Counted from the first letter of the stretch, positions 5,549-20,799 are shown. The stretch is 64,000 nt of DNA from an uncultured Thermoplasmatales archaeon (GCA_964597365.1 CAZQXW010000007.1:2268-66267), one strand, 5' to 3'. Made by a program: numbers and translations. The notes: a model not told the origin generated them from the sequence alone.

Positions 5549-5877
5549 CGCCCTACTCTCTTCAGCTGTGCAAACGGATTACCCTCGACAGGCTTGATTG
5601 GAGCTTTCCCATGAATGACCTCAACACGATCTTCGTTTACCCCGTCCTCGATCAGGAGTACCCCTCGAAACCGATTCACGGTCACATCTTCCTTGTCCTT
5701 CAGGTCCTGTTCCATAACCCGCATGCACGCCTCACTGAGAAACTTCCGTGCGCGAGAGCCGATGATGATTCCAGTAGCCGTATGGTTTGCTTTTCGAACC
5801 GCTTCGAGTTTCTCATCGAGATACCCTATGATCTCCACCCCATCGGTGATGATCCTTCCATCCAACAGCATTGTCAT
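5545..5877 (-). CDS. hypothetical protein
   Basis: GAGGAGG SD. Confidence 0.65.
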   Translation of the reverse strand: MTMLLDGRIITDGVEIIGYLDEKLEAVRKANHTATGIIIGSRARKFLSEACMRVMEQDLKDKEDVTVNRFRGVLLIEDGVNEDRVEVIHGKAPIKPVEGNPFAQLKRVGR

Positions 5878-8382: not shown

Positions 8383-8453
8383 ACAAACCTCCGTTGGGAT
8401 CGGTTATCCCGCAGGGAACACGGCTTTCCATGTTCCCCACGCGAGACCGATTA
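8383..8453 (-). repeat. intergenic RNA-structure element, family I copy 1
   Basis: UAAUCGGU-CUCGCGUG-GGGAACAUGG-AAAG-CCGUGUUCCC-UGC-GGGAU-AACCG-AUCCC-AACGGAGGUUUGU-AUG. Confidence 0.9.
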
Positions 8454-9352: not shown

Positions 9353-10033
9353 TCATTCCTCCATAGGCATAGCTACCACATGCTTCGCCTCAGACAGTCC
9401 TTTGGCGTAGCACTCTTCAAACACGCACAGGTCGGTGCCCGTTTCCCCTACAAGAATCCTCTTCGGCTTCAGGATCGCCAGATACGCCCCATCGAATACG
9501 ACCGTGATGCGAACCTTCGAGACATCTGCCTCACCGTAGTTCAGCGACATCTCGGCGGTATGGTTTTGGTCTCGGGCATGGATTCCTTCCGGGGATATCT
9601 TAACCAGAGTATTACCAAGCTTCTTTCCATCGAACGCATCCAGATACCGATAGAACTCCTCCGGTATCTCCACAACACGTTCTCCAGAAGGTCGTTTTCT
9701 CAGCACGTTCTCGATGTTCGGATAGGTAACCTCAGCAGGCTCCAACGTCTTTACATCGACCGCTTCCGGCCGCACATCCACAGCATCGACCTCGCTGATC
9801 AACACATGAGCGTTGGTGTAGCACCGCTTCCCACCTTTGATCGCAATCACGTCCGTGAACTCACGAGAAGTTCGACTAACCCTCATAAGCCGTCGGGCGA
9901 GCTTCGTGAATGAATCAGCCTTCGGCTTAGATGGTCGTTTTTCCTCTTTGGCACATTCGTGGCATAGCACCCGCCCATCAGCGGCACGAACCTCGAATCC
10001 TCCTGTGTCCTCATGACACTTGTCACAAATCAT
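9353..10033 (-). CDS. Zn-finger protein with possible beta-clamp-like C-terminal domain
   Basis: CDKC/CHEC N-terminus; YPNIENVL, VVFDGAYL and VVAMPM motifs reminiscent of DnaN domains. Confidence 0.45.
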   Translation of the reverse strand: MICDKCHEDTGGFEVRAADGRVLCHECAKEEKRPSKPKADSFTKLARRLMRVSRTSREFTDVIAIKGGKRCYTNAHVLISEVDAVDVRPEAVDVKTLEPAEVTYPNIENVLRKRPSGERVVEIPEEFYRYLDAFDGKKLGNTLVKISPEGIHARDQNHTAEMSLNYGEADVSKVRITVVFDGAYLAILKPKRILVGETGTDLCVFEECYAKGLSEAKHVVAMPMEE

Positions 10034-10656: not shown

Positions 10657-11822
10657 TCAGAGAGAACCAGAACCTCACCAAAGGGAGGACGGAACTCTCG
10701 GGAACCATAGCCGCGCATCGGCTTCTGAACCCAGAGCACAGGGTAAGGCGGCGCATCAGGGAAGTCGTCACACATCCCATCGGTGAAGTACACCATGCAC
10801 CTCGGAGCTTCGCCCCGATCTGCAAGGTACGTAAACGGGGGAACGAAACTCGTACCGCCGCCACCATACGCCTTGAGGGATACTCGATCCCCAGCAGGAA
10901 ACTCATCTACATGATCAATCTCATGATCACAGTAGATCACCGTGCAGTCAGCCCGGTAGTCTTCGAGGATCGAATTGATCTCAGAAGCGAACTCGTTCAG
11001 CTGGCTCTGACGTATCGACCCGCTGGTATCTACCGCCGCCACTACTTGGCCCAACTCGTTGCTATACAGCGACGGAAGGTACAGTCCCTGACCGATGTAT
11101 CGTCGGTTAGGACGACTCCAAGAGAAGTCGTTCTTCGCGGATGAATCCACGAACCTTCGGAGAATCTCTCTCCAGTCAAGCTTTGGTTCCAGTATCTCCT
11201 TCACAATTCGTTCCAGAGAACCGGGGAGATTGCCTGCGACCTTGGCTTGCTGTGCAGCCTGAGCCATGGCAACCTTCCACTCCTGCGACTGCTGACGCTG
11301 CTCTGCCTCGGACGCTTGGGACTCTCCGTCCTCGCCCTTGGCATCACGAACTTCTCCGCACCCACCGGGATCAGGGTTTTCGTCCCCTTCTCCCTCACCT
11401 TCACCGCCGCTGCCTCCCTGCTGATCCTGATCAGGTAACAGAGAGTACACTTGTTCTGCGGTCATGTTGGCATACGATGAATCGATCAGACCACCATCCG
11501 GCAGGCTCATACCTGCATCTCGAATGATTAGATTGATCACATAGTCAGCCGCCATGTTCCACTTTTTTCTATCGCGGTTGCCTCGGCGGGTATGATGCTG
11601 AAGTCCACAGTGGAGAACCTCATGACAGATCAGACCTTTGAGTTGATCCATCGAGACCGTTCCGATGAACTGCGGGTTGTACCCGAGCGTCTTCCCATCG
11701 GTCCACGCAGTCTTACAACTGGTGTCCTCGACAGATATCAGCCGCAGTGCCAGCGATCCGAAGAACGGCTGGTCGAGTACAAGACCTGCTCTACCCTTTG
11801 CGAACAATTTTGTTGCACTCAT
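10653..11822 (-). CDS. metallopeptidase-like + VWA domain protein (DUF2201 type)
   Basis: TAWTDG...ICHEVLH (HExxH), WNMAADYVIN, acidic linker, VAAVDTSGSI MIDAS, GGGGTSF, YFTDG. Confidence 0.9.
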   Translation of the reverse strand: MSATKLFAKGRAGLVLDQPFFGSLALRLISVEDTSCKTAWTDGKTLGYNPQFIGTVSMDQLKGLICHEVLHCGLQHHTRRGNRDRKKWNMAADYVINLIIRDAGMSLPDGGLIDSSYANMTAEQVYSLLPDQDQQGGSGGEGEGEGDENPDPGGCGEVRDAKGEDGESQASEAEQRQQSQEWKVAMAQAAQQAKVAGNLPGSLERIVKEILEPKLDWREILRRFVDSSAKNDFSWSRPNRRYIGQGLYLPSLYSNELGQVVAAVDTSGSIRQSQLNEFASEINSILEDYRADCTVIYCDHEIDHVDEFPAGDRVSLKAYGGGGTSFVPPFTYLADRGEAPRCMVYFTDGMCDDFPDAPPYPVLWVQKPMRGYGSREFRPPFGEVLVLSE

Positions 11823-11899: not shown

Positions 11900-12742
11900 C
11901 TTACCGAGGTAGCCTGCCATCTTATCCAAGATGGCCTTAGCATCCTTGGCAGTTTGCGCACGTACTTCCGGTTCGGTGCGAAGCACCTCCGGCTGTACTT
12001 TGGCGAGCTTCTGGGAGACCTCCTTGCGGAGATTCTCCAGATCGGGATCGTTGGCAACGTTGAGCTTGGGCAATAGATTGACCATCTCAACAGCGTTCTC
12101 CACGAGGGAGTCGCGGAAGATTTTGTCAGGCTCCGAAAGGGTCTCAGCGAATCGCTTGACCACGTCAGCAACCCGGACATAAAGGTCCTGAGTCGCCTCC
12201 TGCATTCGGCGCTCGATACTCTCTTCCAGTGCCTTGGCGATCTTCTTCTGGTCTCGCTGCTGGAGCTTGACCCTGAAGTCTTCCTTGTGCGGCACGGGTT
12301 CGATGCTTGTGTCGAAGCCAAACTTTCGTTTGATCTCTTGCGTGTTCGGGTAGTCGGCGGGGTTGAACATTCCATTCAGAGCCTCTTTCGCTCGCTCACG
12401 GTACTCAGGGTAGTTCTGTATGAACTCCTCAACCGCCTGATCGAACCGCTCTTTCAGCTGGCGCATCTCTTTCGAGTACTCCATGAACTCAGCGGCCGGG
12501 AGAAGCCGTCCACCGAAATCGTCCCACGGGAGCGTATGCTCATAGTGGTACGAACGGGCCGCCGTAGCAGCACGGTCGATGGTCTGTATGGCTTCCTTAG
12601 CGATCAGTACCTTGTTGAAGCGACCGGCATCGTCTCGCGCTCCAAGATCACGAATGACCTTGCGCGTGACGCCTTTGTCGAACTTTCTCGCAGTCCACTT
12701 TGATATGGACACTCGAACGATCATTGCCTCTTCATGTAGCAT
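11897..12742 (-). CDS. DUF3150-like protein (MoxR/VWA-associated)
   Basis: AMIVRVSISKWTARKFD...TLPWDDFGGRLLP...YP; position between MoxR and VWA genes. Confidence 0.75.
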   Translation of the reverse strand: MLHEEAMIVRVSISKWTARKFDKGVTRKVIRDLGARDDAGRFNKVLIAKEAIQTIDRAATAARSYHYEHTLPWDDFGGRLLPAAEFMEYSKEMRQLKERFDQAVEEFIQNYPEYRERAKEALNGMFNPADYPNTQEIKRKFGFDTSIEPVPHKEDFRVKLQQRDQKKIAKALEESIERRMQEATQDLYVRVADVVKRFAETLSEPDKIFRDSLVENAVEMVNLLPKLNVANDPDLENLRKEVSQKLAKVQPEVLRTEPEVRAQTAKDAKAILDKMAGYLGK

Positions 12743-13903: not shown

Positions 13904-14110
13904 CTCTGAATCGATGCTCTTGAGTATCTCACCCTCCGGGGAGAGGTACTCATTATCAATGAGCGACTTGGCCATACGCCCATAGCTGCCTTGCAGCCGC
14001 CATGCCGTACCGGTCTTCACGAGTTCGCTGAATAGCTCCAACGCATCCTCATCGCTCATCTCACCAGACTCATAGTCGATAATCTTATCGACGATCTGTG
14101 TTCCATCCAT
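13901..14110 (-). CDS. conserved small phage protein
   Basis: IVDKIIDYESGEM...ELFSELVKTGTAWRLQGSYGRMA resembles a widespread phage family. Confidence 0.75.
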   Translation of the reverse strand: MDGTQIVDKIIDYESGEMSDEDALELFSELVKTGTAWRLQGSYGRMAKSLIDNEYLSPEGEILKSIDSE

Positions 14111-14174
14111 AACAAACCTCCGTTGGGATTGGTTATCCCAGAAGCGCCCCCGTAGGGACGCCCCCGCGAGATCA
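14111..14174 (-). repeat. family I element copy 2
   Basis: UGAU-CUCGCGGG-GCGUCCC-UACG-GGGGCGC-UUC-UGGGAU-AACCA-AUCCCA-ACGGAGGUUUGUU-AUG. Confidence 0.9.
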
Positions 14175-14426
14175 ACCCTCTTCGTTCTTTTTGGGTCGAT
14201 TGCCAGCAAGCAACGCATCGATGTTCTCCACACCTCGAATCAGTCGATGAATAGTTTTTATGGCGTCCTCTCGTGCGTTCACAAGATCGGCCTCAGAAAC
14301 CCGCTTGTTTCCACCACGAATCGACGTAGCATAGTCACGAACGCCCTTTGTTGCCGGTAAAATAAACGTACCGTTCACATCGAACATTCGAACTTCGGGA
14401 ACCTCTATCGTAATCTTTTCTGACAT
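14172..14426 (-). CDS. hypothetical protein
   Basis: Bounded exactly by two junction elements. Confidence 0.7.
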   Translation of the reverse strand: MSEKITIEVPEVRMFDVNGTFILPATKGVRDYATSIRGGNKRVSEADLVNAREDAIKTIHRLIRGVENIDALLAGNRPKKNEEG

Positions 14427-14493
14427 AACGAACCTCCGTGGGATCGGTTATCCCGGAAGAGGCTCCGTAGAGCCTCCCCCGCGAGTCCGATCA
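14427..14493 (-). repeat. family I element copy 3
   Basis: UGAUCGGA-CUCGCGGG-GAGGCUC-UACG-GAGCCUC-UUCC-GGGAU-AACCG-AUCCC-ACGGAGGUUCGUU-AUG. Confidence 0.9.
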
Positions 14494-14700
14494 GCGGTGT
14501 CGCTTCCGGTGTACTACTACCAGTACACCCTTCGCTCGGGATTCCTTCGGGTCGGGGTCATTCACATGACCACCTTGACGGTATCCCAAAGCATAGGCTC
14601 TGGCTTCTGCCTGTCCGTGGAACTCGGAAAGGTCCCGAGGTTCTTTGTGACTGACACGATCTTCGAACCCGTCTGCGAACGCCTTGTACTCTTCTCTCAT
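14491..14700 (-). CDS. hypothetical protein
   Basis: Bounded by junction elements. Confidence 0.7.
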   Translation of the reverse strand: MREEYKAFADGFEDRVSHKEPRDLSEFHGQAEARAYALGYRQGGHVNDPDPKESRAKGVLVVVHRKRHR

Positions 14701-14767
14701 AACAAACCTCCGTGGGATTAGTTATCCCAGAAGAGGCTCCGTAGAGCCTCCCCTGTGAGACTAATCA
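14701..14767 (-). repeat. family I element copy 4
   Basis: UGAUUAGU-CUCACAGG-GAGGCUC-UACG-GAGCCUC-UUC-UGGGAU-AACUA-AUCCCA-CGGAGGUUUGUU-AUG. Confidence 0.9.
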
Positions 14768-15043
14768 TTCTTCCCAATGCCATGCTTTGAAGTAAGTCAC
14801 CTTGACTTCAGCAATGGGAGCCTCAGGCATGTTTCCAACTGCCCGAGCATAGTTGCGACTCACATCACAACCCTTGGACCGGAGAAACCGTTCCACCTTG
14901 TGGCGCTGCTCTACAGAGCTACAGTCAATGTACGCTCGAACGTCGCGGCCGTACGCTTCACAACGATCCCGCTGCACGCTCTCAGTAACGTCCATACCGA
15001 ACTCATTCAAGTAGCCTACCAACTTCTTTACGCTTACTCTCAT
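14765..15043 (-). CDS. conserved phage hypothetical protein, first gene of promoter-1 transcript
   Basis: ACGGAGG SD at MRVSVKK; VTYFKAWHWEE C-terminus. Confidence 0.7.
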   Translation of the reverse strand: MRVSVKKLVGYLNEFGMDVTESVQRDRCEAYGRDVRAYIDCSSVEQRHKVERFLRSKGCDVSRNYARAVGNMPEAPIAEVKVTYFKAWHWEE

Positions 15044-15249
15044 CACAGACCTCCGTTGCCCGTTTTGGGCGATGTCCCCACGCCGGGTGCTGACCCCGGC
15101 CAGAACCCTGCCATAGGCATTCCGGGGTAGGGGATGTTTCGTCGAGAGCCGACGGTAAGGTGCACGAGCCGGAGGTCGCCTTGGCCCACAACTCACAACG
15201 TAAGCCATGAGCAAACCCGTGCACCCAACCGCAGGCTCTCACCTGCGGG

Positions 15250-15455
15250 GAGGTATTGCATCCTTCTCTTATCCGGCGAGCATCCACGGAACTTGATAGC
15301 TCGGGGGCCGCTGGCTCCTGCCAGCATCCGCTCACTCACCTTCTTCTTTCAAAGACCATTCAGGTCTCGGGGGATTCCCTCTCCCCCTTTCCTTATATTT
15401 ATATTATATCACGATACCGTGATTATGTCAACAAGTTGTTTTTCGGGAGATAACT
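15250..15455 (-). repeat. duplicated promoter + leader block, copy 1
   Basis: Colinear similarity to 17470-17675 including GCUAUCAAGUUCC, CCGGAU and GGAUGC..UACCUCC. Confidence 0.85.
15403..15431 (-). promoter_or_regulatory. consensus sigma70 promoter P1
   Basis: TTGACA (15426-15431), 17-bp spacer, TATAAT (15403-15408); A-rich upstream element. Confidence 0.9.
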
Positions 15456-15630
15456 GTATGACGTGTTCTGTAGAAGATTGCCGGGAAGACTGTCCCGGCG
15501 CAGTCGGCATTGAGAGTCCCCTCGGGGACGCCACAGGGTGTGCCGAAATCTTGTTCCCTCCTAAACGGAGGCGGGTTGTTCAGACCCGGAATTGGGGTGG
15601 GGCAGGAGGCACGAACCCACATCCACCCTT

Positions 15631-15852
15631 TCACTTGATAATGTAGTCTACCTCCCGGTGCCCTTCACAAAGAGCGTAGAACGCCTTGCGCTCCTCACTC
15701 TCGACAGACCGGGGGATGCCTAACGCATCGGCCACGAACGTTCGGTCAATCTCCCACTGTTGCAGCTTGTCACGCCTCACTTCCGTGAGCCGTGGAGATG
15801 CAGCAGGATCAGAAAACCGAAACGCTCTGGCAACTGCTTCAATCTGTGTCAT
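15631..15852 (-). CDS. hypothetical protein
   Basis: Start follows family I element. Confidence 0.7.
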   Translation of the reverse strand: MTQIEAVARAFRFSDPAASPRLTEVRRDKLQQWEIDRTFVADALGIPRSVESEERKAFYALCEGHREVDYIIK

Positions 15853-15921
15853 AGCAAACCTCCATTCGGGATCGAGTATCCCGGAATGGGGTCCGTAGAC
15901 CCCACCCCGCGAGTTCGATCA
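15853..15921 (-). repeat. family I element copy 5
   Basis: UGAUCGAA-CUCGCGG-GUGGGGUC-UACG-GACCCCAU-UC-CGGGAU-ACUCG-AUCCCG-AAUGGAGGUUUGCU-AUG. Confidence 0.9.
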
Positions 15922-16389
15922 GACAGCCCGATATACGGACTCTCCGTTGCTAAAGGTTCCCAGCTTTCGGTACAGGTTGATACCAATACCTCTAAGCTTC
16001 TCCGCAATCTCATCCTCATGCTTGAGCGCCCATTCAGCCGCGAACTCTTCCCAGTTCCGTTTGACGGGCTCCCATGCGCTATCGGAAGGCTCCTCACAAG
16101 GAACCAAAGACAGGGAGCAGAAGCTCATGTACTCGCAGAGCACCACATCAACAATACCGTTCGACGCGATGGCGTGCTCTTCGTCATGATCAAAACCCGG
16201 ACCCCACCGATCCTCCGAGATGAAAGGATCGTCCATCGTGGAAAGCCCTCCACGAATGTTGTCAACCATGAAATCCCAATAGATTTCGGCAAGGTCTTCA
16301 AGATAATTGCCGTCTTCGTCGTACCCATCCTCATACGGAAAATGGTACGTCACTGCGGCGTTACGTGGAACCATTACTGATCTACCCAT
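15919..16389 (-). CDS. conserved phage hypothetical protein
   Basis: HAIASNGIVDVVLCEY...LGTFSNGESVY resembles a recurrent early-gene family. Confidence 0.7.
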   Translation of the reverse strand: MGRSVMVPRNAAVTYHFPYEDGYDEDGNYLEDLAEIYWDFMVDNIRGGLSTMDDPFISEDRWGPGFDHDEEHAIASNGIVDVVLCEYMSFCSLSLVPCEEPSDSAWEPVKRNWEEFAAEWALKHEDEIAEKLRGIGINLYRKLGTFSNGESVYRAV

Positions 16390-16458
16390 TGCAAACCTCC
16401 GTGGGATTAGTTATCCCGCAGGGTGCTCCGTAGAACACCCCACGCGAGACTAACCTCA
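16390..16458 (-). repeat. family I element copy 6
   Basis: UGAGGUUAGU-CUCGCGUG-GGGUGUUC-UACG-GAGCACCC-UGC-GGGAU-AACUA-AUCCC-ACGGAGGUUUGCA-AUG. Confidence 0.9.
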
Positions 16459-17097
16459 GTTCAGGATGTACCGCTCTACGCTTTTGGCGAGGTTGGGCAC
16501 ACCGTGACTACTGGGGTTCCAAGGCGCTTTCCATGTTTCGTCAGGAAGCGACTTGATGTAGTTGACCGACTCTTGAACATGCTCTTTCGAAGTGTAAGGA
16601 CCGATCCTACGAAGAGCATCGATGATCCGGCCAACCGTAGCCTTGACTTCGTCCGAGTACAGATCACTGCGAAGGACTTGCCGAAGCTCTTCCTCATACT
16701 GACGGGCAAGGATGGACCAATACCGCATCGTAAGAAGAGCCACATCCTCGGGATTGGGGATGACATAGGAGAAGCACTCACGATAATCTCGGGTGCTCGC
16801 CCGTTCCTGAAGGCGGTTGAAATCGTTGAGCGTTCGCTCATACTCCTCTCGACCGCACCCAATAACGTGCGCCCGAAGGTCCATCCAACCATCATCACTG
16901 ACTTCTCTGATCTCTCGACCAGTTCGGTGCTCGATGCCCGCAAGCTCTTCCATCTTCTCGTAGTACTTGTCTTGCAGTTCCTTCAGATCGTTGAAACTCA
17001 TCGTGCGGAGAAGCTCCACCGTACGAGCATCGTAATCATACCCCGCATATTCCCAGCGGAAGCTTTCGACAATTTCCCAAAATCTCTCTTCAGTCAT
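16456..17097 (-). CDS. DUF4240-like domain protein
   Basis: MTEERFWEIVE...SDDGWMDLRAHVIGCGREEYE. Confidence 0.65.
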   Translation of the reverse strand: MTEERFWEIVESFRWEYAGYDYDARTVELLRTMSFNDLKELQDKYYEKMEELAGIEHRTGREIREVSDDGWMDLRAHVIGCGREEYERTLNDFNRLQERASTRDYRECFSYVIPNPEDVALLTMRYWSILARQYEEELRQVLRSDLYSDEVKATVGRIIDALRRIGPYTSKEHVQESVNYIKSLPDETWKAPWNPSSHGVPNLAKSVERYILN

Positions 17098-17141
17098 AGC
17101 AACCTCCCGGTACGCTCGGATTGGTTTTAGTAGTCCGAGCG

Positions 17142-17471
17142 TCCCTTGCAGTGCACTCCGTGGGCGGGAGAGCTTGTCTCCCGCCATGGCATCAGCCAGC
17201 GCGATGTACGCTGACCTTCTTGTCGACCTCGTAATACGGAACGTCCTGTCCAGTGATCTTCGCAACCGTTCCCCGAGAAACTGCCTGAACATTTTCCCAG
17301 AAATTGTCGCACCGACGGATTTGAACATCCCACATATTGGGCTCGTCTTCACGACCCATCCATGCGGGGATTCTCACAAACCGAACCGTGTCCGAATGTT
17401 CGATAACGTCTACATAGTTTGCCATGGTGCACCTCCGTTGGGCAGTCGCCCACGCAGTGCACTCCAAGGGA
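17142..17471. repeat. 25-bp inverted repeat (23/25) flanking a single small gene
   Basis: +17142-17166 TCCCTTGCAGTGCACTCCGTGGGCG vs +17447-17471 CGCCCACGCAGTGCACTCCAAGGGA. Confidence 0.85.
17192..17425 (-). CDS. hypothetical protein, first gene of promoter-2 transcript
   Basis: UGGGC/GCCCA hairpin plus ACGGAGG SD before MANYVDV. Confidence 0.7.
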   Translation of the reverse strand: MANYVDVIEHSDTVRFVRIPAWMGREDEPNMWDVQIRRCDNFWENVQAVSRGTVAKITGQDVPYYEVDKKVSVHRAG

Positions 17472-17675
17472 GGAGGTAAGCATCCCTCTCTGATCCGGTT
17501 GGTTTCCATGGAACTTGATAGCCAAAGCCGCTCACGTCCTGCGAGCATCCACTCGCCAACCTTCCTCTTTCAAAAACCCTTGCCAATCTCAGGAGCCTTT
17601 CCTCTCCCTTGATTACATTTATATTATATCATGGTATCGTGATTGTGTCAAATTGTTGTTTTTCAGGAGATAACG
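17470..17675 (-). repeat. duplicated promoter + leader block, copy 2
   Basis: Homologous to 15250-15455. Confidence 0.85.
17623..17651 (-). promoter_or_regulatory. consensus sigma70 promoter P2
   Basis: TTGACA (17646-17651), 17-bp spacer, TATAAT (17623-17628). Confidence 0.9.
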
Positions 17676-17697
17676 TGTTTACTGAATGTTGGCTTGA

Positions 17698-17747
17698 TAA
17701 AAGAAAACCCCCGACCGGCAAAGGAGGTAGGAACGCCGGTCGGAGGG
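17698..17747 (-). terminator. intrinsic terminator insulating the early region
   Basis: CCCUCCGACCGGC / GCCGGUCGGGGG stem followed by UUUUCUUUU. Confidence 0.75.
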
Positions 17748-17828
17748 TGGGACACCGAAGGCTCGCCTGCACACATGCACACAGGAAAGCTCCCTTCTAT
17801 CTATATGGTAACACGAGAGGACCGATCC

Positions 17829-18437
17829 TCAAACACCATACGTGATACGAAAGGGCTGGACGTTCTCGCGCAACTCCCGCGTCGACAGTCGACGGTTATG
17901 ACCGCCCTTGCCATCAGGAAACCTCGCGCCCCACGGATCATTATATATCAGTTCTCGGGTTTGTGTATCGTATGCCAGCACAGCAATATAGTGCCCCGGA
18001 TTCTTGAGACACAGCTGCACCGCCCTTCCCCTATCCAGTTCCTTAACTATGCTCTCCCACTCATTCCCCCATTCAAACCTTCCCCGTACTCCAAATACGG
18101 CGTACACCCCATGAGGGTAGTATTGCGGAACTCTGTTCTCCGGCAGCATATCTACAACAGAGTTTGATCTGATCTCTCGCAAATCATCCTTGATCCGAGG
18201 ATCATTGAAGAAGTCCATCAGCACTTCCTCCGGCTGTGGTTTGAATGTTCCCGGACACGTAATATCCACACTCTTCCCCATCGCTGCCAAACAGTTCACC
18301 GCTGCCGTAGGTCCGCAGGACTCCAACCAGCTATCTCGGTCATGTCGAGTAGCTTTCAGATACGCCTCAGTTGGATTGTTCTCTTGACTGTAGTACCTAC
18401 CCCGATCATTCCAAAACCGTACACCTTTGTGTCTCAT
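17829..18437 (-). CDS. peptidase C39-like (papain fold) protein, candidate lysin
   Basis: YYSQ...SCGPTAAV (Cys), GHYIAVLAYD (His), LIYNDPWG. Confidence 0.8.
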   Translation of the reverse strand: MRHKGVRFWNDRGRYYSQENNPTEAYLKATRHDRDSWLESCGPTAAVNCLAAMGKSVDITCPGTFKPQPEEVLMDFFNDPRIKDDLREIRSNSVVDMLPENRVPQYYPHGVYAVFGVRGRFEWGNEWESIVKELDRGRAVQLCLKNPGHYIAVLAYDTQTRELIYNDPWGARFPDGKGGHNRRLSTRELRENVQPFRITYGV

Positions 18438-18799
18438 CTACGAACCCCTCCTTGAAGCTGGGATGTAATCTGAGTTCTCGTCTGCTCAGAATCAAGCATC
18501 ATATTCCATAGTTTACACCATGGTTCCGAATCAACCCAGTTATATCTCCACGCAGCCATAGGACTACCATACTGGGCGTCTTCCTTTGTAACGATCCCCG
18601 CATCCTCATCAAGCTGCGCCCGTTCCTTGATAGCGATAATCAGATTGGTAGCGCCTTCCTTAGCAGTCCGTCTTTCAGGAGGGGAGTACTCAACATGATA
18701 CTCATTGTGAAGCCTGTTTACGCACGTTTTGCATATCGGTGAGTTCCGGGAAAAATGAGAATCCGGTAACAATCCCTCGCACGTAATACACCGTCTCAC
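18434..18799 (-). CDS. Zn-finger hypothetical protein
   Basis: CITC...CKTC. Confidence 0.6.
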   Translation of the reverse strand: MRRCITCEGLLPDSHFSRNSPICKTCVNRLHNEYHVEYSPPERRTAKEGATNLIIAIKERAQLDEDAGIVTKEDAQYGSPMAAWRYNWVDSEPWCKLWNMMLDSEQTRTQITSQLQGGVRR

Positions 18800-20799
18800 T
18801 TCACATACTGCCCCGCGATCTTGGATTCTTTGAAGCCTTGCACAAGAAGTATCCTGCGCACATCGCTCTCATTCTCCTGCGCCGTCTGCGCGACCAAATC
18901 AACGTCAACATACTTCTGAGATTGATACATGAAATCGATGGTATCTCTGATCTTCTCTTCATCGACCTTTGGCTTAGGAGCTTCCTTCTTATTCTTATCC
19001 TGAATCTGAACAAGAGCCACCTCTGGGGTTAGCCGCGACAGATCAGCGATCTTCTGTCGCTCCTCATCTGACAAACTGGTTCCTGTAACATTACGCTTAT
19101 CCTTATGACTTGTAAGCGCCTCGGACTCCTGCTCAAAGAACTCAAACACCCCATGCTCTGGCATAGTCATACTCGCTTGGACGCAATAAGCATCCGCAAA
19201 GAAGAAGTGATCCGGCCGCGATCCTTCTTTCCAGACAAACCGGCTCTTTTCTGGATTGTCTTCATTGGCCTCCAATATTCGAGTCGGAGCCATCAAATGA
19301 TTGTAGAACTCTCCGTCTTCAAGAAACTCGGCGTTCATCGGAAGTATCATCTGCTGTAAATCGTACCCCTGTCTCACATAATCCAGAAGCGCCGTCCGGT
19401 TCATCGTCACTTCCCGCTTACCCTCATTCTTCGCGAGGTAGTTAACACTTTCCTGAAAACGACTCGACCACACGTTGGGAAAATCAGCCTTCAACTCCAT
19501 CACCTTATGAATCTCGGGCATAGCATCAATCACAGTACAAGTAGGCTTCCATTCACGCATGACCTGTGCTAAAGCGTTGAATCCGGGGAGAGTCCAAATA
19601 CCGATCAGCCGAAACGTGAAGGTACCATCCGGCATTCTTACACGCTCCCGCATAATGGCATGCAGAGATTCTCCTACATCCACCCCAAGAAATCTTCCAC
19701 GGTCTTTCCCTACTCGGCGAGGTGGGAACTCATAATTTCTTCGACAATCATTGAGCATCGCTCTCGTGATCCGAGCACCTTTTGAACTGAACGGTAGTCC
19801 CAGATCGGAGTTGTAAAATATCTGGGTCTTTAGATCATTACCTACAGCCTTAGACCACGTCCGATATAATTCTCGAAGCGTACCCTTCGGAGACAATCGG
19901 GCAACTAACTTACTGACTCTAAATCCCTGCCACTTTCTCGAAGGATACGCATGTACCCACTCTCCGGGACCCAATCGATCTACAGGTTTCCCGCAATCAT
20001 GGATCAACTGTACCTCATCATCTGAAAACGGATCAGGATCGATGCTCGTATCTCGGGGCCGGTAGATGTTCGATCCAACCTCCCTCACAACATGCTGAAA
20101 GAAATCTGGAGTGAACCACTTACCACAATGGGGACACTTGAGCTTCCAAGTGCCCATCGAGCTTTCCTGATAACGCTCATCTATTCCGTAACCTTCAACC
20201 GTAGGGTTACTAATCTCTCGTTCAAACTGATACGGACTCGCTGTAAGACGATCAGGCAGCATCAACAAGTTGCTTAGATTGCACCGATCCTTCTCGTCAA
20301 TGAACGCACTATCAATAGGTATCTCAATAAACTCATCCTGCACGTTCGATCCAACATACGCCAGCGTACCAGTTCCAAAGTGCATAAGACTCGTCCGGTG
20401 GACCTTCGTCTCAGCCTTCATCACCTGATACTGGTAGTGAGGCACCCGCTTGTGCAATTTGTAGATTCGGTTGTTGACGAACCGGTTCCGAAGCTCGTAC
20501 TTCGGCAGAACATACATCACCGACATTCCACGCTCTGCGGCTTCGATATGTGATTGGATAATGAATAGCTCAGATAATCCGCACTGTACTGATTTCTCAA
20601 CCACCATGTAAGGTAGGTCGTCGATCCTATTGTAAAGGTCCCACAGGTAGTTTGTTCCCCGGAGAAACTTCATCCGCTCTCCACGAATATTCCTATGGTA
20701 GGCAAGCGCCCAATACACTGGACGAATATCTGCCCAGTTCTCATACTCCGTCTTCTCAGCGGCAGCTACGGTATCGAACAACTTGGCAACATCACTCAT
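18796..20799 (-). CDS. terL: terminase large subunit (GpA-like)
   Basis: VVEKSVQCGLSE Walker A variant, FIDEKD Walker B, ISNPT motif, CPHCGKW Zn ribbon, LGVDVG nuclease, PDHFFFAD. Confidence 0.9.
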   Translation of the reverse strand: MSDVAKLFDTVAAAEKTEYENWADIRPVYWALAYHRNIRGERMKFLRGTNYLWDLYNRIDDLPYMVVEKSVQCGLSELFIIQSHIEAAERGMSVMYVLPKYELRNRFVNNRIYKLHKRVPHYQYQVMKAETKVHRTSLMHFGTGTLAYVGSNVQDEFIEIPIDSAFIDEKDRCNLSNLLMLPDRLTASPYQFEREISNPTVEGYGIDERYQESSMGTWKLKCPHCGKWFTPDFFQHVVREVGSNIYRPRDTSIDPDPFSDDEVQLIHDCGKPVDRLGPGEWVHAYPSRKWQGFRVSKLVARLSPKGTLRELYRTWSKAVGNDLKTQIFYNSDLGLPFSSKGARITRAMLNDCRRNYEFPPRRVGKDRGRFLGVDVGESLHAIMRERVRMPDGTFTFRLIGIWTLPGFNALAQVMREWKPTCTVIDAMPEIHKVMELKADFPNVWSSRFQESVNYLAKNEGKREVTMNRTALLDYVRQGYDLQQMILPMNAEFLEDGEFYNHLMAPTRILEANEDNPEKSRFVWKEGSRPDHFFFADAYCVQASMTMPEHGVFEFFEQESEALTSHKDKRNVTGTSLSDEERQKIADLSRLTPEVALVQIQDKNKKEAPKPKVDEEKIRDTIDFMYQSQKYVDVDLVAQTAQENESDVRRILLVQGFKESKIAGQYVK

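Follow-up and report, generated by a model that had tools for sequence, protein, structure and literature searches.

A 64-kb stretch of DNA assigned to an uncultured Thermoplasmatales archaeon carries two bacterial-type promoters, each followed by a long, folded and untranslated leader RNA. We call this whole stretch the window; it comprises bases 2268-66267 of contig C7 (67.3 kb, 50.8% GC), which is treated here as a phage contig for the reasons given below. Shortly behind its promoter, each leader contains a block that is, by sequence and position, a boxA of the ribosomal RNA operon (rrn) type, the putative loading site for NusB-S10. The promoter, 5' hairpin, boxA, downstream helices and leader-trailer helix are the parts of an rRNA operon. 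We therefore read the leaders as Nus-factor antitermination and processing leaders, resembling those of rrn operons and nutL of phage lambda, and in our judgment this is the probable reading, if only modestly so.

Two homologous leaders behind consensus promoters

A pattern scan placed TTGACA-17-TATAAT promoters at 15431..15403 (P_A) and 17651..17623 (P_B), minus strand. The positions agree with those of the original prediction, which had called both perfect sigma-70 promoters; their strand was corrected to minus. With one mismatch permitted, these are the sole matches in the window, against a chance expectation of 0.2. Both promoters have a TG extended −10 and share the upstream sequence GTTATCTCC(C/T)GAAAAACAAC, so the conserved upstream tract that had been described is present. 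Including this region, P_B spans 17623..17678 (−; upstream box GTTATCTCCTGAAAAACAAC, then TTGACA-17-(TG)TATAAT) and P_A spans 15403..15458 (−; upstream box GTTATCTCCCGAAAAACAAC, then the same arrangement). The two are presumably the strongest host-type promoters of the phage and head tandem operons of small, presumably early, genes.

Transcription is predicted to start near 15396 from P_A and near 17616 from P_B. Because the first genes start only at 15043 and 17425, the untranslated leaders are ~353 nt (leader A, 15044..15396, −, up to the ATG at 15043) and ~191 nt (leader B, 17426..17616, −, up to the ATG at 17425). The earlier estimate of ~150 nt holds for the conserved part and falls short of the full untranslated lengths: counted from the presumed start, the similarity between the copies extends over 148 nt (A) and 145 nt (B), to a few bases past the sequence ACCUCC. 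In a pairwise alignment the copies, which lie 2.2 kb apart, are 76% identical over ~205 nt (E = 9e-32). Leader A consists of two modules: module 1 (15396-15249) shares homology with leader B, and module 2 (15248-15044) with the leaders of two related phages, L013 and L020. The first genes, each behind a GGAGGU, are A1 (92 aa, 14765..15043, −) and B1 (77 aa, 17192..17425, −). B1 has no family match, and the two proteins are unrelated (E = 0.77).

Relatives were found through scans of IMG/VR and JGI metagenomes with the large terminase (TerL) and an ATPase, and then by motif and by eye. The TerL proteins of these uncultured phages are 53-70% identical, and the promoter and leader module lies downstream of TerL in at least eight of them (L007, L013, L015, L020, L022, L026, L030 and L043). 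The homology search that had been recommended thus recovered the same plan in related phages: a near-consensus promoter, usually with a TTATCTC..GAAAA box, is followed by a purine-rich start, a conserved U-rich block, variable hairpins, AGAGAAGG, and ACCUCC with a hairpin behind it. L015, L020 and L030 also hold two copies, 2.8, 2.35 and 1.8 kb apart, respectively; therefore, tandem duplication of promoter and leader is a family trait. Other routes yielded little. Almost no new relatives came from an nhmmer profile of the four closest leaders, a search of IMG/VR for exact copies of two conserved leader and promoter strings returned only chance matches within coding sequence, and a megablast search of 14000-19000 against GenBank phages gave zero matches. 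Scanning 185,579 species genomes with a TerL profile yielded no relatives and hence no clue to a prophage or host.

The closeness and the identity of the two copies could also reflect a recent duplication of the promoter region in neutral decay, which had been named as the outcome that would refute a leader RNA. However, the similarity is limited to promoter and leader while the flanking genes are unrelated, the differences within helices are compensatory, and the module is conserved across phages whose TerL proteins share only 53-66% identity. Compensatory changes and conservation across phages contradict neutral decay, and we give it next to no credence. Moreover, the unrelated genes behind the copies, the recurrence in other phages, the compensatory pairing and a reading frame that is not kept all support the proposal of a non-coding leader RNA beyond promoter duplication. 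Judged by comparative sequence analysis, the leader is a selected non-coding RNA and not a decaying duplication. A leader peptide encoded from the ATG within the conserved GGAUGC was considered and rejected, since its frame is not kept between copies A and B. Three features had not been noticed before: the boxA block, a long helix bracketing the first gene, and module 2 of leader A.

The promoters show further regularities. A box (G/A)TTATCTC(C/T)NGAAAA lies 5' of the −35, at about −60 to −38 (15432-15458 and 17652-17678 in the window), where it could act as an UP element or bind a factor. The upstream box of P_B is kept in L013, L020, L022, L026, L043, L007 and L030, and the box is retained even where the core promoter diverges (L030). 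The 17-nt promoter spacers (15409-15425 and 17629-17645) contain a palindrome that covaries among the phages, TCACGgtatCGTGA in P_A and TCCCGgtaaCGGGA in L026, and that is imperfect in P_B, L013 and L020. The spacer palindrome may be the site of a dimeric repressor that silences the early promoters; the TCTTTGAAAGA palindrome, considered as an operator, was rejected because it is non-palindromic in most relatives. A third promoter of this family, TTGACA-17-TATAGT, occurs at 2831-2925 of L013; it shares the spacer and the upstream box and precedes a plain leader of ~55 nt without boxA. Promoter and leader are separable modules.

The boxA block

The boxA-like block of leader A, AUGGUCUUUGAAAG, is located at 15346..15359 (−) and that of leader B, AGGGUUUUUGAAAG, at 17566..17579 (−). 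The rrn boxA consensus is UGCUCUUUAACA in E. coli and AUGAUCUUUGAAA in B. subtilis (PMC13753749), and leader A, with AUGGUCUUUGAAA, agrees with the latter at 12 of 13 positions, although this consensus may not be that of the host. NusB-NusE recognise 8 nt, (U/G)GCUC(U/C)UU (PMC3177189), and seven of the eight core positions are matched in leader A (UGCUCUUU against UGGUCUUU). The blocks of the relatives include GGGAUCUUUGACAG (L013), GAGUUCUUUAACAU (L020b) and AUGAUCUUUAACAU (L022). L020b contains GUUCUUUAACA, an exact fit to the gamma-proteobacterial consensus GYUCUUUAANA (PMC5725501), and L022 reads AUGAUCUUUAACA.

Across 12 leaders the consensus is A-N-G-R-U-C-U-U-U-G-A-M-A-G, in which G3, U5, U8, U9, A11 and A13 are invariant, and the block is the most conserved part of the 5' half of these leaders. 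In every leader it lies 20-56 nt past the −10, on the transcribed strand and in the promoter-proximal untranslated region. When the strict motif was scanned in 585 kb, comprising the window and the non-redundant loci, 10 of the 12 matches on the gene strand fell inside leaders, although leaders account for only about 0.6% of the scanned sequence, and the other strand gave three matches. On the transcribed strand of the window, the motif occurs in the two leader copies only.

Pairing of the boxA UCUUU with a downstream AGAGA (helix P1) was considered as the cause of the conservation. It was rejected because both partners are invariant and the C-to-G change found in both L030 copies is uncompensated.

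Hairpins around boxA

A hairpin with a purine-rich loop, P0, stands immediately 5' of the boxA block in eight of 11 leaders, with a predicted stability of −10 to −15 kcal/mol, and the 5' segment of the leaders is 63-93% purine. P0 is GGGGG(A)-loop-(U)CCCCC in leader A (15369..15387, −) and GGGAG-AGGAAAGG-CUCCU in leader B (17591..17608, −), and the two stems covary. B. subtilis rrn leaders likewise open with a small hairpin, with boxA immediately next (PMC13753749).

These features would also suit an element that acts only in RNA stability and processing, in which the 5' hairpin and the purine-rich, Shine-Dalgarno-like tract block 5' exonucleases, the long helix described below serves RNase III, and elongation is unaffected; the helices of 22-28 bp are well supported. 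Such an element would leave unexplained why a strand-specific, single-stranded boxA match at a fixed place is the most conserved 5' block, and P0 is absent from L013 and L026 while boxA stays. We consider this explanation improbable, at about one chance in eight.

The second conserved hairpin, P4, is GC-rich, lies 20-45 nt past boxA and is common to six leaders. It reads GCUGGC-AGGA-GCCAGC in leader A (15310..15325, −) and GCUCGC-AGGAC-GUGAGC in leader B (17530..17546, −), so that both covarying hairpins of the original prediction are present in the two copies. Over the six leaders the P4 stem is 100% paired, and four of its six pairs show compensatory changes. In the four closest leaders P4 is enclosed by helices P2 and P3, which also contain several compensatory pairs. 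P4 is missing in L013, L020, L022 and L026. Its loop, (A/U)GG(A/G), differs from the lambda, P22 and phi21 types; it reads AGGA in the window, AGGG in L015a and the two L030 copies, and UGGG in L015b. The earlier emphasis on GGA therefore holds for the window copies and not for L015 and L030.

This variation bears on the possibility that the leader is a CsrA/RsmA sponge or is controlled by CsrA through GGA in hairpin loops. The AGGA loop of P4 in both window copies and the several GGA per leader fit that proposal. However, the GGA core is not conserved outside the window, and no CsrA gene was found on the contig or in the rest of the bin, although control genes were detected. For these two reasons the proposal is disfavoured, and we regard it as very unlikely.

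The central part of the leader is swapped or strongly enlarged in L013, L020, L022, L026 and L007. The conserved multi-helix fold, and the unpaired GCUAUCAAGUUCC and AAGAGAAGG that are conserved in some members, would be in keeping with a riboswitch that senses a ligand or with a small RNA that is released and acts in trans; cleavage of the long helix by RNase III could free an RNA of ~150-180 nt. Replacement of the central domain is, however, unlike the behaviour of an aptamer core, and there is no terminator behind the conserved part. Furthermore, the Rfam 15 covariance models gave no match at gathering score in the window; three chance-level matches at E ≤ 10 fell within 14900-17800, and no Rfam family matched the leader even at E = 10. 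Both versions of this proposal thus seem decidedly improbable.

The ACCUCC box, P5 and the long helix

Behind an A-rich stretch, every leader carries ACCUC(C/U). In the window the shared end had been given as GGAUGC-NN-UACCUCC, and we find GGAUGC-(AA or U)-UACCUCC, with ACCUCC at 15249..15254 (−) in leader A and 17472..17477 (−) in leader B. Leader A has a second ACCUCC (15176-15171), which borders the 3' arm of the long helix on its inner side. Pairing of the 5' purine tract with ACCUCC into a closing helix was set aside, as only the fold of leader B shows it.

Directly 3' of ACCUC(C/U), seven leaders form a hairpin of 6-7 bp, P5, with a loop that is often UGAGAG. In leader A it is CCGCAGG-UGAGAG-CCUGCGG (15229..15248, −). 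P5 is 94% paired, and five of its seven pairs are compensatory. Its loop and 3' strand also form the first part of the 5' arm in a long helix; therefore, the two structures are mutually exclusive. In leader A the long helix (15143..15241, −) is 'empty', with arms of 28 nt at 15241-15214 and 15170-15143 that are 43 nt apart. Homologous empty helices occur in L013 and L020b, and across the three, 24 pairs are predicted, of which eight are compensatory. One compensatory pair lies inside the P5 loop, where GAGAG/CUCUC becomes GGGAG/CUCCC in L013. P5 and the long helix thus both appear to be kept by selection, and since they exclude each other yet are both conserved, they bear the mark of a co-transcriptional switch.

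In unit B the long helix brackets the first gene. Its 5' arm in the leader, UCCCUUGGAGUGCACUGCGUGGGCG (17447..17471, −), follows directly after ACCUCC, and its 3' arm in the trailer (17142..17166, −) begins 25 nt past the B1 stop codon. The arms are 25 nt long and 92% complementary, with 23 Watson-Crick pairs, and are predicted to pair at −47.6 kcal/mol with the whole gene B1 looped out. None of 60 shuffles of the region reached a helix length of 25. Bracketing helices of 22-25 nt (−32 to −48 kcal/mol) occur in leader B, L020a, L022 and L043. The sequences of the arms are unrelated between the phages, while their sites are alike, 6-20 nt past ACCUCC and ~20-25 nt past the stop codon. The L020a helix (25 nt) has a loop of 213 nt with a 57-aa gene, and that of L022 (24 nt) a loop of 342 nt with two small genes. 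In L043 the arms are 22 nt (11490-11511, 12005-12026 and 12400-12421). Here a single 5' arm could pair with either of two identical 3' arms (GCCACCCUCGGAGCAGUUUACU), located past the first and past the second gene, respectively, so the leader-trailer helix could enclose one gene or two.

The role of ACCUCC deserves separate consideration, because the leader might be mainly a translational operator in which ACCUCC pairs with the GGAGG of the first gene, the switch between P5 and the long helix times its release, and Nus factors are uninvolved. All leaders contain ACCUCC or ACCUCU, which adjoins the switchable P5 and long helix, and the predicted folds of L015a, L030a and L030b pair it with the ribosome-binding site of the first gene at a probability of 0.7-1.0. 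On the other hand, ACCUCC is able to pair with any GGAGGU, and its flanks fit the cognate site no better than others (own mean −13.65 against −13.53 kcal/mol for shuffled partners, p = 0.42). The best folds of leaders A and B pair ACCUCC elsewhere, and the ribosome-binding site of leader A is ~190 nt off. ACCUCC also occurs in terminator loops that have no gene start nearby, and neither the boxA block nor P0 is explained. The anti-Shine-Dalgarno label that ACCUCC had been given is plausible but lacks support from covariation. As the main function, translational control appears unlikely, with perhaps one chance in five; as a second function it is compatible with antitermination and processing.

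Proposed mechanism

We propose the following course of events for the Nus-loading and processing leader. P_B and P_A would start two tandem early operons right after the terminator of the preceding operon. The polymerase would first produce the purine-rich 5' hairpin and then, at about +35 to +50, the single-stranded boxA block. Host NusB-S10 may bind this boxA and, together with NusG and NusA, convert the host polymerase into a processive form resistant to Rho and to terminators. The nascent leader would thereby be tethered to the polymerase, and the long, untranslated and structured early RNA would be protected. The hairpin domain P2-P4, with its NGGR loop in P4, may serve as a protein site similar to boxB. 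Once the polymerase has made the 3' arm, 43 nt later in leader A and 280 nt later, behind B1, in unit B, the stronger helix of 22-28 bp should displace the P5 that adjoins ACCUCC. The resulting leader-trailer stem would be a likely RNase III substrate, and cleavage might detach the leader or excise and stabilise the first cistron. Formation of the helix may also alter the freedom of ACCUCC to pair with a GGAGG ribosome-binding site.

Several observations weigh against this proposal. Within the 8-nt core, position 3 is G, A or U instead of C, and at position 5 the two L030 copies (GAUGUUUGACAG) have G and leader B has U. The block is degenerate in L007, in L043 and, with its UUUUU, in leader B. 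boxA is a short element, and a match to it is not equal to binding. Its predicted accessibility is moderate (0.3-0.66 unpaired) and uninformative. RNase III cleavage is suggested by helix length alone; the enzyme would be that of the host, because the phage contig, searched for NusB, NusG and RNase III genes, yielded none of the three, and no NusB was found in the bin. No strong intrinsic terminator lies within the two operons as a signal to be overridden, and there is only a weak hairpin between unit B and P_A. Rho is a candidate signal, yet the G-rich, C-poor leaders disfavour it. Finally, no N-like arginine-rich protein was recognised among the eight small proteins encoded behind the leaders, which have no family match, in a by-eye check that is weak.

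A more far-reaching version can be imagined, in which the early operons are mimics of pre-rRNA. The boxA complex would tether the leader until the trailer emerges, and the helix would then close around the mRNA. ACCUCC, identical to the 16S anti-Shine-Dalgarno sequence, would silence the first ribosome-binding site until the helix forms or RNase III cuts, so that translation would follow once transcription is complete; the ACCUCC loops of the late-operon terminators would obey the same logic. We offer this version as a speculation that is unlikely as a whole.

Comparison with known systems

In rrn operons, a complex of NusA, NusB, NusE, NusG, SuhB and S4 is loaded by a boxB hairpin, boxA and boxC, and the transcript is processed by RNase III. 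In the phage leader as in the rrn leader, a very strong promoter preceded by A-rich sequence is followed by a small 5' hairpin and boxA (PMC13753749). The rrn logic joins the boxA complex to a leader-trailer helix and an RNase III cut, and this helix has 27-44 bp in E. coli, compared with 22-28 bp behind the first unit of the phages (PMC10250234). However, the rrn helix encloses rRNA, whereas that of the phages encloses a small protein-coding gene (57-150 aa) or nothing. We recognised no boxC in the phage leaders, and conversely, ACCUCC and the switch between P5 and the long helix have no described counterpart in rrn leaders.

The nutL and nutR sites of lambda and its pL-N leader comprise boxA, boxB, the protein N and, upstream of the start of N, an RNase III site. 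Similar to the arrangement described here, the nut sites are two related sites just past two early promoters, with boxA and, ~20 nt on, a hairpin with a conserved purine-rich loop, for which P4 is the candidate in the phage leaders. Like the phage leaders, the pL-N leader is a long structured RNA that is not translated, and an extended double-stranded segment precedes its first early gene. The differences are considerable. The lambda units are divergent, whereas those of the phages are tandem and co-directional. The lambda boxA is weakened (CGCUCUUA), unlike the rrn-type boxA of the phages. The boxB loop of lambda is a GNRA-like pentaloop in place of NGGR, we found no N-like protein in the phage, and the myovirus is unrelated to lambdoid phages. 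The putL and putR RNAs of HK022 provide another parallel: they are RNAs of ~70 nt with two stem-loops that need no boxA and no Nus factors. Like the present leaders, they are two homologous folded RNAs acting in cis past two early promoters, and the present leaders, too, could act on the transcribing polymerase without help from a phage protein; this is a likeness by description only.

boxA is also found outside rRNA operons and lambda, for example in the suhB leader and at CRISPR arrays (PMC5725501). As in the phage leaders, these boxA elements lie in a 5' leader, and they are tied to the protection of untranslated RNA from Rho or to control of a nearby ribosome-binding site (PMC5725501). In gamma-proteobacteria they lie less than 50 nt from a start codon or ahead of CRISPR arrays, whereas the phage boxA lies 140-300 nt ahead of the first start codon and inside a larger conserved fold.

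The phage contig and its gene order

All genes in the window are on the minus strand, and they include tail sheath, baseplate, DNA polymerase, helicase, large terminase, MoxR-type ATPase and HNH endonuclease genes. The bin that holds C7 comprises 2.3 Mb and is reportedly archaeal, and its other large contigs have 28-35% GC. The expression signals of C7, that is GGAGG ribosome-binding sites and sigma-70 promoters, are bacterial in type. Given the GC gap to the bin, the set of phage genes and these signals, C7 is, from its sequence features, the contig of a tailed phage (a myophage of ~67 kb) mis-binned into an archaeal genome of ~35% GC. Contig C13 of the bin (47% GC) may be foreign as well.

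In the order of transcription, structural genes (64-44 kb) are followed by replication genes (43-21 kb), TerL (20799-18796) and a C39-type peptidase gene, and the order ends with small genes behind both promoters, to which no function could be assigned by family; all are on the minus strand. The operon of TerL and the C39-type peptidase is closed by a strong intrinsic terminator (17699..17745, −) with a 12-bp stem, a 13-nt loop UUCCUACCUCCUU and the tail GGUUUUCUUUU (−23.2 kcal/mol, z-score −3.6). The large loop of this terminator carries UUACCUCCUU, identical to the 16S anti-Shine-Dalgarno sequence, and matching terminators with ACCUCC loops occur in L022 (~5555-5610), L030 (~9500-9555) and L014 (~12320-12395).

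The small early genes are joined by a repeat of ~79 nt that leads from a stop codon through hairpins to GGAGGU and a start codon. Five or six copies with 62-85% identity are present (14100-14178, 14415-14493, 14689-14767, 15843-15921, 16378-16456 and 8383-8410).

boxA modules in other viral contigs and their implications

A search of IMG/VR for consensus promoters with TCTTTGAMA 20-50 nt behind them gave at least 119 stretches (loci L072-L190). Among the matches listed, 68 of 120 have a G two bases 5' of the motif, as in the full boxA (G-N-UCUUUGA-M-A), and many have a small hairpin right in front of it; examples of the order promoter, hairpin and boxA are L078 (6080-6147, −), L090 (4534-4601, −), L091 (3559-3628, +) and L131 (7090-7160, +). 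In four contigs among the matches listed, the module lies 400-550 nt upstream of a co-oriented GOLLD RNA within tRNA arrays, and further modules among them also sit in tRNA arrays. None of the papers searched combines 'GOLLD' and 'boxA'. Because modules head GOLLD and tRNA operons, phages seem to use rrn-type leaders with promoter, hairpin and boxA for operons of untranslated RNA, which lends independent support to our reading of the two leaders. This suggests that boxA leaders may be a general phage device for protecting RNA that is untranslated or poorly translated.

Nus-factor antitermination is textbook knowledge for lambdoid phages and rRNA operons. To our knowledge, it has hardly been described in other phages, especially in uncultured ones with signals that are not of the enterobacterial type. 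The known part of the present system is a boxA leader of the rrn or nut type; the new part is the added switchable, gene-bracketing helix with its ACCUCC box, tandemly duplicated at the early region. If the proposed reading is correct, a family of large uncultured myophages would commandeer the rRNA transcription machinery of the host by RNA alone, and an rRNA-style leader-trailer stem would be placed around a protein-coding gene, an arrangement that we have not found described. The 14-nt block with its six invariant positions could then be used for host prediction, as a phage boxA should track the rrn boxA of its host, and the boxA leader could be used in strong, terminator-proof expression cassettes.

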